Assembly: GCA_944389235.1 (NCBI GenBank)
Contig: CALXLO010000005.1
Span: 1 to 59,080 of the forward strand
Length of the DNA stretch: 59,080 nucleotides
Direction: 5' to 3'
Source: an uncultured Alphaproteobacteria bacterium
GTDB taxonomy: Bacteria > Pseudomonadota > Alphaproteobacteria > Rs-D84
Both the position numbers and the translations under genes were made by a program. Each line of letters opens with the position of its first letter. Position 1 is the first letter of the stretch. The notes beneath the pieces are model-generated. The model made no database searches. It was not told the DNA's origin and saw only the letters and a list, made by a program, of their open reading frames with translations. This document shows positions 1-48,443 of the stretch, piece after piece.

Positions 1-317
1 AACCACCTGTGTTTTTCTGGTGGTTTTTGTTTATATTTTTATGGGGGTTAACATGGCAAAATCAAAAACCAAAGCAGGATTATTTGACGAATTGCTAAAC
101 GCATATTGTACATTGTTTACTTTGCTGGAACGCATAAAGCCAATCGTAATGGCGGAACTGGAATCACAACGGCGCGCATATTCATCCCCAAAATTCAAAC
201 ATTCAAGATTAAAATAAATTTTGTAATAAAAAACAACTATACTAAGTTGAACTATTATCAAACGCCCCTGCGCTGCGGGATGCATCCCCATGCACAAAAT
301 AAAATCGCCCGTTGGGC
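1..317 (+). repeat. Cassette copy 1 (end of C4-like RNA, terminator, 54-aa ORF, 3' flank); inverted near-identical copy at 26518-26834
   Basis: 1-317 matches the reverse complement of 26518-26834 with few differences; 1-217 also matches 589-805. Confidence 0.9.
53..217 (+). CDS. 54-aa orphan protein, copy 1 (MAKSKTKAGLFDELL...)
   Basis: GGGGG RBS-like run before ATG53; reading frame kept in three copies with amino-acid variation. Confidence 0.7.
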   Translation: MAKSKTKAGLFDELLNAYCTLFTLLERIKPIVMAELESQRRAYSSPKFKHSRLK

Positions 318-407
318 AAAAAAAACAGCCACACTTCGCGCCAGGCTTCATGGGGTACTAAAATTTTTTAATCTTACCGGGCAAATTGAATATAAATTGA
401 TTTACAT

Positions 408-436
408 TTTACTTTTATAAAATCTAATGGTATGAT
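408..436 (+). promoter_or_regulatory. Putative sigma70 promoter of C4-like module 2
   Basis: TTTACT-17 nt-TATGAT with upstream TG, ending ~7 nt before the first leader hairpin. Confidence 0.5.
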
Positions 437-444
437 TTTGATTG

Positions 445-525
445 GCAAGGGCGTATTGCTCTTGCTGGGGCTTTTCAACCCTGCGTATAGCGTCAGAGTA
501 TGACGATACAATACTCCAACTTTTT
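445..525 (+). promoter_or_regulatory. Structured leader with a1/b1 target sites of C4-like RNA
   Basis: Hairpin 445-465; hairpin 467-482 with loop TTTTCAA (a1, 472-478); CGTATAG (b1, 484-490); alternative strand ACTCCAAC 513-520. Confidence 0.7.
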
Positions 526-595
526 GGTTGGAGTGCGGTGAATATATCGAATAAACCGCGCAATTCTATACGATTGTTGAAAAACTCCAACCACC
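526..595 (+). ncRNA. C4-like antisense RNA (three-way junction)
   Basis: P1 526-534/584-592, P2 535-539/555-559, P3 560-564/573-577 with loop CTATACG (b'), bulge TTGAAAA (a'); ends CCACC; covaries with the copy at 26828-26900. Confidence 0.75.
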
Positions 596-620
596 TGCAT
601 TTTTCTGGTGGTTTTTGTTT
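589..620 (+). terminator. Intrinsic terminator overlapping the 3' strand of the C4-like RNA
   Basis: AACCACC...GGTGGTT followed by T-run; same element at 1-30 and in the 26.8 kb copy. Confidence 0.65.
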
Positions 621-640
621 ATATTTTTATGGGGGTTAAC

Positions 641-805
641 ATGGCAAAATCAAAAACCAAAGCAGAACTATTTGACGAATTGCTAAACGCATATTGTACA
701 TTGTTTACTTTGCTGGAACGCATAAAGCCAATCGTAATGGCGGAACTGGAATCAAAACAGCGCGCATATTCATCAAAAAATTTCCAAAATTCAAGATTAA
801 AATGA
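641..805 (+). CDS. 54-aa orphan protein, copy 2
   Basis: Near-identical to 53-217, same RBS. Confidence 0.7.
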   Translation: MAKSKTKAELFDELLNAYCTLFTLLERIKPIVMAELESKQRAYSSKNFQNSRLK

Positions 806-818
806 TGCTAAAAAAAGA

Positions 819-832
819 CCGGCATTTGCCGG
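819..832. terminator. CCGGC-N4-GCCGG bidirectional terminator family (also 2918, 7550, 9462, 13196, 18168, 33741, 34841, 39511, 52328)
   Basis: Near-identical palindrome flanked by A- and T-runs at gene 3' ends. Confidence 0.85.
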
Positions 833-837
833 CCTTT

Positions 838-2055
838 TTATTCATATCGCAGACTGTCAATTGGATTCAGTTTTGCCGCTTTCATTGCCGGCATAACCCC
901 AGATGCCAATCCGACCACAATCGCGACACTGACCGATACCACAACCGGCCATGCACTGAATGGTACTTCATACCCCATTATAAATCGTCCAATACCCTGG
1001 GACAGACCGACACCAAACAATAATCCAACCATAGAGCCAATAAAAGAAATTAAAATTGCTTCGGATAAAAATTGAATAATGATATGGCGTTCACGGGCAC
1101 CAATTGCTTTGCGTATGCCGATTTCGCGTGTGCGTTCTGCAACCGATACCAACATCATATTCATAATACCAATAGAACCAACTAATAACGATACAGCTGC
1201 AATTGCAACCAACAGCATGGTCATATATCCTGTTACGGTATCCATTGCCTCCATAACCTGCTTCATATCCATAATTTGAAAATCGTCGGCTTCGTCATCT
1301 GCCAGTTTATGTCGGTCGCGCAACAATGCTGTTATTTGTTCAATTGCCAGTGCATTATCTGCCCCGTCTTTTAGTTTTAATGTAATCATGCTTACAGAAT
1401 TTGGGAATCGACTGCCTTGCAGACGCTTTTTTAGTGTAGTAATTGGTATAATAACCATATCATCTTGGCTGCCCATTGCGGAATCACCGCGTTCTTTGGT
1501 AACACCGATGATTGTAAAAGGCATATTTTGAACACGGATAACTTCGCCAACTGGGTTTTCTGGCATATTTAATTCTTCGGCTGTTTGGGGTCCAATAACT
1601 GCGTATGTTGAACCATTGCGCACGGCCGCCTGGTTAAAAAATGTGCCGTATTTCATTTCCAGATTTTGTACCTGTTCATATCCTGGGTACACGCCAACCA
1701 TTGATGATGCCCAGTTTTGATTACCGTATATAATCTGGGCTGCGCTGTTTTGTACTGGGCTGAATGCGGCAACATCAGGTAATTGTCCGATAAATTCACC
1801 ATCTTGCATAGTCAAAGTTTGGCGATTGCCAGTACGCACACCCGCGCTTTGCGCCGCGCCCGCGCGAATCATAATCGTTCCTGTCCCCAGTGATGAAAAT
1901 TGGTCGCTGATTTGTTTTGACACTGTTTCACCAACTGCGACCATTATAACCACCGCCATAACGCCAATGATAATACCCAGTACTGTCAGGAAAGAACGGA
2001 TTTTATTTCCACTGATAGACAGCCATGATTCTTTGAATATATCGTTAAATGTCAT
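838..2055 (-). CDS. MacB/FtsX-family ABC transporter permease
   Basis: RSFLTVLGIIIGV, GIMNMMLVSVAERTREIGIRKAIGA, C-terminal LNPIDSLRYE. Confidence 0.95.
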   Translation of the reverse strand: MTFNDIFKESWLSISGNKIRSFLTVLGIIIGVMAVVIMVAVGETVSKQISDQFSSLGTGTIMIRAGAAQSAGVRTGNRQTLTMQDGEFIGQLPDVAAFSPVQNSAAQIIYGNQNWASSMVGVYPGYEQVQNLEMKYGTFFNQAAVRNGSTYAVIGPQTAEELNMPENPVGEVIRVQNMPFTIIGVTKERGDSAMGSQDDMVIIPITTLKKRLQGSRFPNSVSMITLKLKDGADNALAIEQITALLRDRHKLADDEADDFQIMDMKQVMEAMDTVTGYMTMLLVAIAAVSLLVGSIGIMNMMLVSVAERTREIGIRKAIGARERHIIIQFLSEAILISFIGSMVGLLFGVGLSQGIGRFIMGYEVPFSAWPVVVSVSVAIVVGLASGVMPAMKAAKLNPIDSLRYE

Positions 2056-5554: not shown

Positions 5555-5628
5555 GGCCTGGTGGCAGAGTGGTTATGCAGAGGACTGCAAATCCTTGTAT
5601 GCCGGTTCGATTCCGACCCAGGCCTCCA
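5555..5628 (+). tRNA. tRNA-Cys(GCA)
   Basis: GGCCTGG/CCAGGCC acceptor, GCA anticodon, TTCGATT T-loop, CCA end. Confidence 0.95.
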
Positions 5629-5942
5629 AAAATCAAACATCCTGCAAGGGGTGTTTTATTTTTGGAAAATTGGAGCCATCGAACCGGCACGGTTCGCATA
5701 AGAGCAGGATTTTGCCAGCGCAAAATGTTTGCGCGCCGAAAAATCCGTGCGAATGGTGAGTCAAGTTGCGTTTAGCAACGGTTCCCGTATGCGCAGCGAT
5801 ACGGGAATGCGAACTTTCCGACCCAGGCCTCCAAAAATTAAACATCCCGCAAGGGGTGTTTTATTTTTGGAAAATTGGGGCCATCGAACCGGCGCGGTTC
5901 GCATAAGAGCAGGATTTTGCCAGCGCAAAATGTTTGCGCGCC
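5611..5942 (+). repeat. tRNA-Cys 3'-linked direct repeat (127 bp x2, period 205)
   Basis: 5611-5737 ~ 5816-5942; each begins with the last 18 nt of the tRNA plus a terminator hairpin. Confidence 0.9.
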
Positions 5943-12017: not shown

Positions 12018-12108
12018 AGGGTATATATTATCATAATATTTATATAAGCAAATAAAAAAGCATTTTTGTATTATGGCGGCTTGATTTTTTCATCAAGTGG
12101 CTTTATAG

Positions 12109-13188
<1,080 letters not shown>

Positions 13189-26428: not shown

Positions 26429-26505
26429 GGATGTTTAGCTCAGTTGATTAGAGCGTCTCGTTTACACCGAGAAGGTCGGGGGTTTGAGTCCCTCAACATC
26501 CACCA
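26429..26505 (+). tRNA. tRNA-Val(TAC)
   Basis: GGATGTT/AACATCC acceptor, TCTCG-TTTACAC-CGAGA arm, CCA end. Confidence 0.93.
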
Positions 26506-26616
26506 CAAAATATAATCGCCCAACGGGCGATTTTATTTTGTGCATGGGGATGCATCCCGCAGCGCAGGGGCGTTTGATAATAGTTCAACTTAGTATAGCT
26601 GTTTTTTTTACAAAAT

Positions 26617-26781
26617 TTATTTTAATCTTGAATGTTTGAATTTTGGGGATGAATATGCGCGTTGTTTTGATTCCAGTTCTGCCATTACGATTGGCTTTAT
26701 GCGTTCCAGCAAAGTAAACAATGTACAATATGCGTTTAGCAATTCGTCAAATAGTTCTGCTTTGGTTTTTGATTTTGCCAT
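26617..26781 (-). CDS. 54-aa orphan protein, copy 3
   Basis: Near-identical to 53-217 and 641-805. Confidence 0.7.
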   Translation of the reverse strand: MAKSKTKAELFDELLNAYCTLFTLLERIKPIVMAELESKQRAYSSPKFKHSRLK

Positions 26782-26827
26782 GTTAACCCCCATAAAATAT
26801 AAACAAAAACCACCAGATAAAAACACA

Positions 26828-26900
26828 GGTGGTTGGAGGCTTCTAACAATTAGCAAGAATTGCGACTTTTATTCAATATATTCAAAGTCCCTCCAACCAC
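26828..26900 (-). ncRNA. C4-like antisense RNA
   Basis: P1 GTGGTTGGAGG/CCTCCAACCAC, P2 GACTTT/AAAGTC, P3 GCAATT/AATTGT; b' CTTGCTA and a' TTAGAAG complementary to upstream b1 (26936-26942) and a1 (26948-26954). Confidence 0.75.
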
Positions 26901-26986
26901 GAATTGGGTTGGAGTTTTTATCGTCCCTGCGGACGCTTGCTATTGGATTAGAAGTATCCAGCGACAGAACACCCGTCGCAAAAATT

Positions 26987-27037
26987 ATTATAGTCAGCAT
27001 AATTTAATATTGCAATCTGAAAATTGTTTGGTATAAT
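26987..27037. promoter_or_regulatory. Divergent promoters sharing a palindromic TTGCAA -35
   Basis: TATAAT on - (26987-26992) and on + (27032-27037), 17 and 16 nt from TTGCAA at 27010-27015. Confidence 0.55.
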
Positions 27038-27299: not shown

Positions 27300-27376
27300 G
27301 GGTGGTTAGCTCAGTTGGTTAGAGCGTTACGTTGACATCGTAAAGGTCGTTGGTTCGAGTCCAATACCACCCACCA
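27300..27376 (+). tRNA. tRNA-Val(GAC)
   Basis: GGGTGGT/ACCACCC acceptor, TTACG-TTGACAT-CGTAA, TTCGAGT, CCA. Confidence 0.96.
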
Positions 27377-33766: not shown

Positions 33767-34351
33767 TTAAAATCTGTATCCCAGACCGGTTGTCAAACCG
33801 AATCCAGATATGTCCATATCTGCGTCATATCCATATACATCGACACTGAATGATGCACCGGCATATTCCAGACCAACCTTGACATACATATTGTCATTAA
33901 ATGTGTACTTTACACCGGCACCAATGCCATAGCCAAAACCAATTTCATTATCAACATCTAATGAATCAATACTGATAAATCCGATACCAGCAGATAATGA
34001 AATATATGGTTGTAATTTAGTGTCCATAAACGGAATATCCAATTTTAATCCCAAATCAAAAATAGATGTGTCTTCTTGATCTGAATAAGATGGGGTAAAG
34101 GCCAGTTGAATCCCATCAAAATCAGCACCAACAGACAGCGATGTACCCGCATTGATTGATGTTGTATCAATGTCTGACAGTGTTTGACTGTCCAATTTTG
34201 TTTTTGTCCCGGCACTGGAAAATATCGATGCGCCATATTCCATAAAGAATCTGGTGTTATCAAATATATTGGTTGTGCTGGCTGGCGTTTCTGTGGCAAA
34301 GACACTTGCAGGCAATAATGCACATAGTGCAACAGGAATTATTTTTTTCAT
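33767..34351 (-). CDS. Small outer membrane beta-barrel protein
   Basis: Signal peptide, alternating beta strands, QPYI, C-terminal GLGYRF. Confidence 0.88.
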   Translation of the reverse strand: MKKIIPVALCALLPASVFATETPASTTNIFDNTRFFMEYGASIFSSAGTKTKLDSQTLSDIDTTSINAGTSLSVGADFDGIQLAFTPSYSDQEDTSIFDLGLKLDIPFMDTKLQPYISLSAGIGFISIDSLDVDNEIGFGYGIGAGVKYTFNDNMYVKVGLEYAGASFSVDVYGYDADMDISGFGLTTGLGYRF

Positions 34352-34366: not shown

Positions 34367-34590
34367 AAAAAAAGTTAAACCGCCACAGTATTGGCGGTCG
34401 GGGAGTTGATAAATCATATCTGTTAGATGATTCCGCTGTCTTTGGTAAAACCTGTTGTATACCAGCTGCCCCCGACCCAATGTCGGGGATATAACGGTGC
34501 AAAAACACCATTACACCAGATAACGATGCTTTCGCACCGAACAGATATGGACTTATCACAGTCCGAACGCCACATTAATGTGGGTTCTGG
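34367..34590 (-). ncRNA. C4-like RNA module (a1/b1 leader, C4-like RNA ~34393-34477, terminator) in the OMP leader
   Basis: a1 TGATAA/a' TTATCA; b1 CATATCTGTT/b' AACAGATATG; P1 GGTCGGGGG/TCCCCGACC overlapping terminator ACCGCCA/TGGCGGT; promoter TTGTAT-17-CATAAT upstream. Confidence 0.65.
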
Positions 34591-47298: not shown

Positions 47299-48443
47299 TG
47301 GCAAAACAAACACGCGTTTCTAATGCCAATATGATGAGTTTTTCAGAAAAACTTAGCCGTTTTTCATGGTCTATGTTTATTCCGATGTGTTTAATATTGG
47401 CAATATCAATTGTTGTGTTATATTCCGCCGGTGGTGGTGCATGGCGACCATTTGCATTATCACAATTGATTAAAATAGGTCTGGGGTTTGCAGTATTCTT
47501 TGTCGCGGCTTTTTCAAATATAAAAACATGGATTAAATCAGCATACATTATTTACGCAATTGCATTAATTATGATTGTGCTGGTTACATTTGTCGGGCAT
47601 ACCGGTATGGGTGCACAAAGATGGTTGAATCTGGGATTTTTTCATGTACAACCATCTGAACTGATAAAAATTGCATTGGTGTTAGCACTGGCGCGATACT
47701 TTGCATGGATGAATTCTGTTGAATTATCACAAATAAAAAATTATGCGTTGCCAATGGCAATGTTATTAGTGCCTTTTTTGTTAATTGTGGCGCAACCTGA
47801 TTTAGGAACTGCATTATCACTGGGGATGATTACAGTTGGAATTTTTTATATCGTTGGTGCGCAAAAAAAATGGTTTATTATCGCAGCTGTACTGGGGTTA
47901 ATGGCGGCACCTGTTATATGGTTCGGTGGTCTGCATGATTATCAGCGCGACAGAATTATAACTTTTATAAATCCTGACCATGATGCCCAGGGTGCGGGAT
48001 ATCAAATTAACCAAGCAAAAATTGCATTTGGTTCCGGCGGAATGCTGGGCAAAGGATATATGGCCGGTACACAATCACAACAATCATTCTTGCCAGAAAA
48101 ACAAACTGATTTTATATTTACCATGTTGGGTGAAGAATTTGGTTTTATCGGCGCATTTATATTGTTAATGCTGTATACTTTTATTGTTGGTGTGTTGTTC
48201 AGATGCGCAAAAACATGCCGCAACCGATTTGGTCAATTGGTGTGTTTTGGATTTATGTTGAACTTTTTTATTTATTATTTTATAAATATTTCTATGGTTC
48301 TGGGGTTAATGCCAACAGTGGGTGTACCTTTGCCGTTAATGTCTTTTGGCGGCAGCAGTCTGTTATCACTGATGTTTGGATTTGGACTGTGCCAGAACGC
48401 ACATATTCATAAAGACCAACAATTATCTGCCAAAGGAAGTTAA
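47298..48443 (+). CDS. rodA: Rod shape-determining protein RodA
   Basis: GAQRW, QPSE..K, QPDLGT, LPEKQTDFIF, GGSS. Confidence 0.95.
   Translation: MAKQTRVSNANMMSFSEKLSRFSWSMFIPMCLILAISIVVLYSAGGGAWRPFALSQLIKIGLGFAVFFVAAFSNIKTWIKSAYIIYAIALIMIVLVTFVGHTGMGAQRWLNLGFFHVQPSELIKIALVLALARYFAWMNSVELSQIKNYALPMAMLLVPFLLIVAQPDLGTALSLGMITVGIFYIVGAQKKWFIIAAVLGLMAAPVIWFGGLHDYQRDRIITFINPDHDAQGAGYQINQAKIAFGSGGMLGKGYMAGTQSQQSFLPEKQTDFIFTMLGEEFGFIGAFILLMLYTFIVGVLFRCAKTCRNRFGQLVCFGFMLNFFIYYFINISMVLGLMPTVGVPLPLMSFGGSSLLSLMFGFGLCQNAHIHKDQQLSAKGS

Follow-up and report, generated by a model that had tools for sequence, protein, structure and literature searches.

C4-type RNAs are single-copy phage immunity devices, and those of phages P1 and P7 reportedly differ in their code. 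The CI RNA of P4 and the CA RNA of N15 are processed leader RNAs that act through premature termination of their own operon, with P4 also using a downstream site (seqC), and leaders composed of a terminator, an antiterminator and an anti-antiterminator are found in amino-acid operon attenuators and riboswitch platforms. A further relative, sRNA-Xcc1, is to our knowledge a mobile-cassette small RNA (sRNA) of unknown mechanism. Here, we analyse a structured leader RNA located at the start of a stretch of 59,080 nucleotides (nt; hereafter the window), the first 59 kb of contig C5 (CALXLO010000005.1) in the assembly of an uncultured alphaproteobacterium (GCA_944389235.1; 823 kb or 0.82 Mb, 22 contigs, 97.9% complete). 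Window 444–616 belongs to a family of structured leader RNAs that is spread across the lineage, and the interpretation that we favour, with a probability of roughly 55%, is that it works as a default-off transcription attenuator, locked by pairing within its own leader.

The annotated record of phage P1 contains a promoter, a1 (48255–48261) and b1 (48269–48276), both labelled as 'putative' sites, the C4 RNA (48343–48419), a2, b2 and icd. The Rfam consensus of C4 consists of a P1 stem, a P2 hairpin, a P3 hairpin, a linker, the P1 3' strand and CCaCC, and that of c4-a1b1 of two hairpins with a1 in the second loop. Regarding sRNA-Xcc1 of Xanthomonas campestris, the literature describes an 88-nt RNA on Northern blots (PMC2996969), integron cassettes of Xanthomonas in which it precedes symE (bioRxiv 10.1101/2025.06.18.660453), and seven copies in one Xylella genome, five of them ~380 nt apart, together with another Xylella strain in which it adjoins C4 and isrK (PMC12189769); it also occurs in Xylella islands and in APSE phages.

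The organization of the window locus follows this scheme, as a preliminary description of the sequence had proposed. All the elements listed there (the hairpins, a1 and b1, a three-way junction at 526–595, and the P3 loop and linker complementary to them) were re-read in the sequence, and their coordinates were right to within 1–2 nt. In the features below, a' and b' denote the segments complementary to a1 and b1, and R1 is a covariance model built from the copies of the core RNA found in this genome by nhmmer and blastn.

408–436, plus strand: promoter-like site (TTTACT, 17 nt, TG-TATGAT), a consensus match only, from which the leader would start at ~443
444–466, plus strand: predicted hairpin H0, the first of the leader
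467–482, plus strand: predicted hairpin Ha, with a1 in its loop
472–478, plus strand: a1, TTTTCAA (TTTTCAAC at 472–479), in the Ha loop
484–490, plus strand: b1, CGTATAG, single-stranded between Ha and Hb, complement of b'
491–505, plus strand: hairpin Hb (CGTCA/TGACG), from the sequence and the predicted fold
513–520, plus strand: P1alt strand ACTCCAAC (ACTCCAACT at 513–521), alternative partner of the P1 5' strand, forming a hairpin with 526–534
526–595, plus strand: three-way-junction RNA, scored at 115.1 bits by R1
526–533 and 585–592, plus strand: P1 5' strand GGTTGGAG and P1 3' strand CTCCAACC
535–559, plus strand: P2, with a conserved 15-nt loop GAATATATCGAATAA at 540–554
561–576, plus strand: P3 (CAAT 561–564 / ATTG 573–576), whose loop contains b' (CTATACG, 566–572)
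577–583, plus strand: a', TTGAAAA, in the linker between P3 and P1
591–595, plus strand: CCACC tail of the three-way-junction RNA
589–616, plus strand: intrinsic terminator (AACCACC 589–595, 11-nt loop, GGTGGTT 607–613, then TTTTT)
631–635, plus strand: ribosome-binding site GGGGG, 5 nt before the ATG
641–805, plus strand: open reading frame (ORF) of 54 amino acids (aa), copy 2, including the stop codon; no Pfam or PHROG match

The terminator before the ORF shares AACC with the P1 3' strand, confirming the overlap that had been described. A repeat listing of the same sequence contains a 14-nt inverted repeat at a1/a' and an exact 10-nt repeat at P1. A simple terminator scan lists a terminator at 819–832 and not the one at 589–616, because the 11-nt loop of the latter exceeds the limit of the scan. 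The consensus scan for promoters found two promoter-like sites against 3.4 expected by chance.

This leader is one of many. The core RNA is present in 18 copies in its own genome according to blastn and nhmmer; R1 recovers the same 18 (E up to 1.8e-13) and adds five divergent copies (E 2.5e-8 to 2.8e-5) in which the same parts can be read, giving a total of 23. Three full copies are in the window, at 503–624 (plus strand), 26797–26925 (minus strand) and 34367–34499 (minus strand). R1 matches are found in 36/36 sampled genomes of the genus, with 1–55 matches per genome, although these numbers of matches are not exact copy numbers. In the other families of the order, matches were found in 4/4, 13/14, 0/1, 1/2 and 1/3 genomes, the search of genus and order giving ~700 matches in all. 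Matches were also found in 14 of the 149 'same class' genomes outside the genus and the order. An exact-pattern scan of species-representative genomes retrieved at least 120 stretches, and among the matches listed the titles are in every case those of Candidatus Enterousia, uncultured (Alpha)proteobacteria, 'Rickettsiales bacterium' or 'bacterium' metagenome-assembled genomes of animal gut origin. A first motif scan, in which three mismatches were allowed, gave 197 matches that were mostly random and was discarded. Most of the DNA runs in which the window occurs carry the label chicken gut. PMC12306168 gives the genomes of these bacteria as smaller than 1 Mb, and the terms sRNA, noncoding, riboswitch, repeat and phage do not occur in it.

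The two complementary segments form a code. There are 126 distinct b' loops among 140 copies, a' also varies, and the upstream a1 and b1 vary in step with them. In the genome of the window, 15/18 copies form their best duplex with the cognate leader (mean −16.7 versus −9.8 kcal/mol), and a1 and b1 are exact and in the expected order in 13/18 copies, with one more presenting a G-U pair. Both complements (at least 6 nt) are located upstream in 30/37 copies, against 1.1% for foreign leaders. Similarly, in 107 of 139 copies (one of the 140 having been dropped because less than 100 nt were available upstream) the own leader contains exact complements of at least 6 nt to both a' and b', in the right order and at most 20 nt apart, while the same is true of only 0.31% of 4135 non-cognate pairs of copy and leader. 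In 103 of these 107 copies a1 lies within a hairpin loop closed by a stem of 3 bp or more, compared with 60/107 when the flanks are shuffled. Two reverse-strand echo rows had been removed before the code counts. Eighty of the loci were chosen by a pattern fixing P1 and most of the P2 loop, so that counts of those two features are biased in them, while their a/b counts are free of conditioning on a/b. The code is therefore copy-specific in both of its parts and would tie each leader to its own RNA.

The targets of these codes appear to be restricted to the leaders. Both targets were found downstream of the RNA in 0/37 copies, and a search of the whole genome with codes of at least 7+7 nt found no a+b site beyond the own leader, with the exception of C4_20417, which has one extra a+b site with a spacing of 53 nt. 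A looser search for second targets (6+6 nt) gave tens of sites per code, about the chance expectation. Orthologous copies in different genomes retain their codes. Conversely, copies in the same genome with similar downstream genes can have different codes, as in the pairs L002/L004 and L088/L085, whose downstream regions are 99% and 88% identical.

The predicted folding gives these complementarities a possible role. All the energies reported here are nearest-neighbour predictions without pseudoknots. The isolated RNA (524–597) folds as a three-way junction at −24.9 kcal/mol (z −4.5, 300 mononucleotide shuffles), and the leader as a whole (432–622) reaches −70.3 kcal/mol (z −6.56), a value that none of 200 shuffles attained. 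In this full-length minimum free energy (MFE) structure, H0, a1:a', b1:b', P1alt, P2 and the terminator are formed, and a1 together with the GGGG arm of Ha is paired with a' and CUCC. When the P1 fold is forced at full length, the energy is −53.0 instead of −70.3 kcal/mol, a gap of 17 kcal/mol, and already at nt 596 the self-paired fold (−60.7) is ~10 kcal/mol better than the P1 junction (−51.0). For the growing transcript, the predicted order of folding is Ha and P1alt, then b1:b', then a1:a' extended by GGGG:CUCC, and the terminator last. If the a1/b1 segment is removed, the MFE structure of 505–597 is the P1 junction (−24.9 kcal/mol), and if the terminator arm is then added (505–622) it becomes P1alt plus the terminator (−34.9 kcal/mol).

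The helices involved are conserved as helices. In 103 further copies aligned to R1, 97.5% of the cells in P1, P2, P3 and the terminator can pair, in an alignment that was itself fitted to the model and thus favours pairing; 19 of the 20 pairs vary on both sides, 0/500 shuffles attain the observed values, and slid controls are 31–47% paired. The P1alt strand contains an exact complement to the P1 5' strand of at least 7 nt in 80/140 copies and of at least 5 nt in 130/140, and it covaries with P1 in copies that depart from the consensus, such as those with CTCCTGA, CTCCTGC, CCAGCCTG or CCCGACC. The P1alt strand thus changes along with P1, so that the P1 5' strand has two competing partners and its pairing with each of them is conserved. 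The terminator overlaps the P1 3' strand by 3–4 nt in every subtype, and CC[A/G]CC is nearly invariant in the terminator helix of the 103 copies. Therefore, a terminator, a helix that competes with it and excludes it, and a third strand that competes with this helix are all predicted, as in an intrinsic-terminator attenuator, and the covariation across three strands bears out the two mutually exclusive folds that the preliminary description had proposed.

These changes on both sides of four helices, added to those of the a/b pairs and seen in the sense-strand register only, are difficult to reconcile with the idea that the family consists of repeated DNA (for example miniature mobile elements or boundary sites of cassettes) folding by accident, and not of functional RNA. 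It is true that the copy number is high for such small genomes, that contigs break at the element, and that the related sRNA-Xcc1 is reported from integron cassettes. Nevertheless, the copies also point the same way towards an ORF with a ribosome-binding site, which follows them at a constant distance (in 15/20 copies of this genome and 95/122 of its relatives), with a promoter-like −10 site before them and a terminator after them, and we regard the DNA-element explanation as the least credible of those considered here.

From these data, we propose the following attenuator model. The promoter would start a leader of ~175 nt, in which Ha would display a1 in its loop, next to a single-stranded b1. 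The P1alt hairpin would capture the P1 5' strand first, and b' and a', once transcribed, would find their partners b1 and a1 on the same transcript, with the a1:a' helix prolonged by pairing between the GGGG arm of Ha and the CUCC in the P1 3' strand. This self-pairing would leave AACCACC free for the terminator, and therefore the default outcome would be a stop before the ORF. Were a1 and b1 unavailable, the P1 junction and the P1alt fold would have approximately equal energy, and formation of P1 would remove AACC from the terminator and allow read-through. The likeliest natural competitor for a1 and b1 would be the processed three-way-junction RNA of the same locus, resulting in a locus-specific autoregulation. 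Hfq was not found in the genome. The gene for RNase P RNA is present (188.8 bits) and, according to PMC5499578, RNase P matures the C4 and P4 CI RNAs.

This last point, along with an order of parts equal to that of the phage P1 region and a terminator placed directly after the RNA, could equally suggest a classical negative control of the C4 or P4 CI type, in which the processed RNA binds the nascent a1/b1 and provokes premature termination. However, the predicted folding terminates already without any RNA supplied in trans, there is no antiterminator involving a1/b1 that such an RNA could disrupt, and downstream targets of the a2/b2 or seqC type are absent both from the 37 copies and from the whole-genome scan of the codes. 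We thus consider a control of this type improbable. The attenuator model can also be extended, with each copy acting as an RNA-only, self-addressed bistable switch, where the processed RNA of the locus would titrate a1/b1, open read-through and thereby establish a positive feedback that would be private to the locus because the codes are orthogonal. This extension is unlikely in our opinion. If true, 20–50 loci per genome would provide independent, heritable on/off variation of the cell surface without DNA rearrangement, and a function would be assigned to the a1/b1 sites that are called 'putative' in the phage P1 record.

Several observations weigh against the attenuator model. In addition to the pseudoknot-free energies and the model-fitted alignment mentioned above, the full-length MFE structure still has the terminator when a1/b1 are blocked, implying that read-through would need kinetics or a factor. 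The P2 loop is highly conserved, which points to a shared factor and is not explained by the model. Four copies located before paralogous small XRE genes (C18:554-674, C9:35151-35266, C2:28657-28771 and C6:12254-12379) have short leaders without a1/b1, although they keep P1, P1alt, P2, P3 and the terminator, and therefore the code is not obligatory; those on C2 and C6, after which no intact gene is found by our ORF rule, may be decaying. Contigs assembled in Logan from four RNA-library runs (depth 1–17, giving no ends, strand or level) cover 578–937 and parts of 218–337 and 978–1377, with none at 338–577, and so speak neither for nor against termination or a processed RNA. The models of the Rfam C4 clan (CL00128) match none of the 18 copies and R1 does not score on the C4 region of phage P1, a reciprocal failure that makes the kinship with C4 a matter of layout and not of score. 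Finally, the a/b covariation is accounted for just as well by a role confined to a single molecule.

Indeed, the main rival is a leader acting purely in cis, where a1:a' and b1:b' are drifting long-range helices of the 5' untranslated region (UTR) and a shared factor, either a protein or an RNA, binds the core formed by P1 and the P2 loop. The whole-leader MFE structure holds both helices as nested intramolecular pairs, the sole target of each code is in cis, and the orthologous copies that keep their codes across genomes fit this explanation, as do a P2 loop (GAATATATTGAATAA) and a P1 that are nearly constant while the other helices covary, one of these counts being biased by the search pattern. 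On the other side, the position of a1 in a conserved hairpin loop (the 103 of 107 copies above) and of b' in the covarying P3 loop corresponds to a fast-pairing antisense layout that plain helices do not need, and drifting helices would not lead us to expect the different codes of same-genome copies such as L002/L004 and L088/L085. Moreover, action in trans as discrete RNAs is reported for the closest known relatives, C4 and sRNA-Xcc1. As for the factor, the search for an RNA complementary to the P2 loop found none in the genome (matches with up to two mismatches are the elements themselves or coding sequence), and no candidate emerged, Hfq not being found. Altogether, the cis-only explanation is possible but remains, to us, doubtful.

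The genes under these leaders are diverse. An ORF with a ribosome-binding site starts 8–70 nt past the terminator in 15 of the 20 own-genome copies examined. They encode the 54-aa ORF (two of those 20), a 56-aa membrane-like ORF, four XRE-type helix-turn-helix (HTH) proteins, Cys-rich secreted proteins with Ephrin_rec_like matches, a YadA-anchor protein, two outer-membrane beta-barrels and large proteins without family but with N-termini resembling signal peptides. In the relatives, 95 ORFs were retrieved behind 122 copies (18 short own loci were skipped, 20 of the 122 have no ORF by our rule, and seven are too near the end of the locus). Pfam recognizes XRE-type HTH domains in at least 12 of these 95 and little else. 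A crude rule assigns 16 of them to small HTH-like proteins and 39 to proteins with a signal or membrane N-terminus, leaving 40 others, among which ~14 show by eye a small-HTH pattern and ~10 are signal-like. The 54-aa ORF, with three copies here, has homologues in 3/150 other genomes of the order (4/151 in total) and matches no family in Pfam or PHROG, and it is thus a rare passenger.

This distribution bears directly on the function advanced in the preliminary description, that of a domesticated, multi-specificity immunity array that would either supply decoy RNAs against phages or release the 54-aa protein as an effector upon titration. Related RNAs do precede toxic or regulatory genes in phages and mobile cassettes (icd/ant in phage P1 and symE in Xanthomonas), and the codes are very diverse. 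In addition, four IMG/VR contigs contain the element. In the one examined, L207, a full copy with its own a1/b1 (12078–12201) is located 250 nt after a methyltransferase/PLD gene pair, which itself follows P2-like sheath, tape-measure and tail genes, and precedes a 316-aa membrane-like ORF without family. Nevertheless, the same device is found before ~23 unrelated chromosomal genes, including outer-membrane, secreted and XRE proteins, the codes find their matches in their own leaders and nowhere else in the genome, the 54-aa ORF is confined to four of 151 genomes, and housekeeping genes lie on both flanks. An immunity array is thus very improbable, although phages were not searched for matching codes, and the related claim of a C4-like gating of a small toxic ORF finds no a2/b2 target near the ORF.

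The flanks were inspected on both sides of the locus. Since the window begins at base 1 of its contig, that contig has no sequence further left, but C9 is most likely the contig that joins it there, as C9:77-1 is 100% identical to window 1–77 and carries the body of the leader to which the first terminator of the window belongs. The array does not extend far to the left, where an extension had been suggested as possible, because C9 gives this one additional leader, preceded by rlmN, lptD, lptFG, nusA and infB (encoding RlmN, LptD, LptF/G, NusA and IF2). To the right, the cassettes are followed by convergent genes for MacB-like, ABC ATPase, HlyD and outer-membrane efflux (OEP, TolC-type) proteins. 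Neither flank is a prophage, and the context of the phage immunity regions (icd, ant, kil) was not found there. The absence of phage genes nearby was therefore correctly noted, and the genes on C9 are not those of an intact prophage. The remaining features of the two adjacent cassettes and of the other two copies in the window are the following.

1–28, plus strand: terminator hairpin and T run of the preceding leader (AACCACC 1–7 / GGTGGTT 19–25)
53–217, plus strand: 54-aa ORF copy 1, including the stop codon, 87% aa identity with copy 2
819–832, no strand assigned: G+C-rich hairpin flanked on either side by a T run, located after ORF copy 2 and before the macB-like gene that converges on it
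26518–27000, minus strand: third cassette (leader and ORF within 26617–27000), with its leader core at 26797–26925 and 54-aa ORF copy 3 at 26620–26781
34367–34499, minus strand: copy of the sRNA-Xcc1-like subtype; the gene that it precedes (33770–34351) encodes an outer-membrane beta-barrel

The first two cassettes form a direct repeat (1–215 and 589–803, 94% identical, spacing 588 nt). The third cassette has a different code (a1 CTTCTAA, b1 TAGCAAG) and sits between tRNA genes at 26429–26502 and 27300–27373. From the P2 loop on, the three 54-aa cassettes are almost identical except for b', a' and the P2 stem, while their upstream halves are only ~50–60% alike. Ancient leaders whose ORFs underwent gene conversion would account for this pattern as well, and we therefore do not deduce diversifying selection from it. 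The spacer 218–317 is also conserved after the third cassette, and a terminator-like hairpin is located on the minus strand at 305–319, in the spacer between the first two. The b' of the window copy (CTATACG, 566–572) is identical to the b1 of the neighbouring leader on C9 (L005), and vice versa, and therefore the b' loops of these adjacent cassettes are mutually complementary, which may be due to chance or to an inverted code. One RNA-library contig (run X17) joins b'/a' of the C9 type to window 582–711 without mismatch; it may represent a strain with a swapped code module or a chimera, and was not used as evidence. Further into the window, a 127-nt direct repeat (5611–5737 and 5816–5942, 97% identical), the first copy of which starts in the 3' end of the tRNA at 5555–5625, could be the remnant of an integration at this tRNA.

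The place of the family among described RNAs depends on layout as well as on scores. At gathering thresholds, Rfam recognizes only tRNAs in the window, and the weak Rfam matches (leader peptides, STnc sRNAs, SgrS and similar) were disregarded as they all fall on terminator hairpins. Of the C4-like identity given to the leader in the preliminary description, the layout stands, as judged against the annotated phage P1 record and the consensus structures of C4 and c4-a1b1, but the score does not: C4 (RF01695), c4-2 and c4-a1b1 (RF03163) have no match at E up to 10 in window 1–900, in any of the 18 copies or in the whole genome, whereas the immI region of phage P1, used as a positive control, scores 68.8 bits with C4 (gathering 45) and 51.0 bits with c4-a1b1 (cut-off 46.7).

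The best-scoring Rfam model for the family is sRNA-Xcc1 (RF02221). It has no match at E up to 10 on the own copy of the window, but it scores 44.5 bits (E 4e-7), under its cut-off of 53, on the divergent copy C1:23032-23127 of the same genome, 57.8 bits, above the cut-off, on one copy of a congener (the others reach 27–51 bits), and 31.6–39.1 bits on copies from sister families. Overall, it matches in 24/61 genomes and in 0/14 controls. R1 detects C1:23005-23148 at E 2.5e-8, in the same place as RF02221, showing a continuity between the subtypes, and the window copy is thus linked to sRNA-Xcc1 transitively, because a divergent subtype is detected by both models. By reading, the congener copy with 57.8 bits also combines a b1 with an a1 placed in the loop of a hairpin, and it has both a P1alt strand and a hairpin behind P1. 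Therefore, the element is a divergent subtype of the sRNA-Xcc1/C4 kind, and not a member of any Rfam family by score.

Compared with the C4 region of phage P1, this leader has the same succession of a promoter, two hairpins with a1 in the second loop, a single-stranded b1, a spacer and a three-way-junction RNA of ~70–77 nt, with b' in the P3 loop, a' in the linker between P3 and P1, and CCACC after P1. In contrast, its P1 stem has 8–9 bp instead of ~17, its P2 has a conserved 15-nt loop in place of a tetraloop, it lacks a functional a2/b2 at the ribosome-binding site, and it possesses an intrinsic terminator overlapping P1 as well as an extra strand competing for P1. Moreover, it is chromosomal, non-phage and multi-copy, and the downstream genes are not icd or ant. 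The resemblance to sRNA-Xcc1 concerns the three-way junction, the GG/CC-rich P1, the A/U-rich P2 motifs of GAAUAA type, the CaCC tail and the position upstream of a co-oriented gene (symE in the Xanthomonas cassettes). Both are multi-copy, with five copies ~380 nt apart in Xylella, but the number of copies per megabase is far higher in the present genome.

As in P4 CI and N15 CA, the RNA is part of the leader of the operon that it would control, the complementary site is upstream, and the outcome is termination; unlike in P4, only the upstream site is present, and termination is the predicted default without an RNA in trans. The IsrK model (RF01394) overlaps the a1/b1 hairpin region of phage P1 (35.1 bits), and therefore the 5' module of such leaders can be a stand-alone RNA. 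IsrK of Salmonella has no match in the window copy or in the 18 copies, and no separate short RNA is expected here, because Hb is not followed by a T run. With attenuator leaders, the family shares three overlapping strands that choose between a terminator and a competing helix, although the input would be a copy-specific, two-segment RNA–RNA pairing instead of ribosome stalling or a ligand pocket.

In this genome, the known C4-type design has been multiplied to a density of ~1 copy per 35 kb (23 copies on a chromosome of 0.8 Mb, and up to 55 model matches in relatives), with private two-segment codes placed before ordinary genes for surface proteins and small regulators. If these codes act in trans, each cell would contain a natural set of dozens of orthogonal riboregulators, which would be one of the main levels at which genes are controlled in this lineage of very small genomes. 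If they act only in cis, the family would still be a large and well-covarying class of attenuators, undetected as a family of its own by the Rfam searches made here, that links C4 and sRNA-Xcc1 by layout. Either way, its ~700 natural sequence variants offer material to probe the role of a1/b1 in C4-type systems, and the family is new as a highly expanded, self-addressed form of a known kind of RNA.

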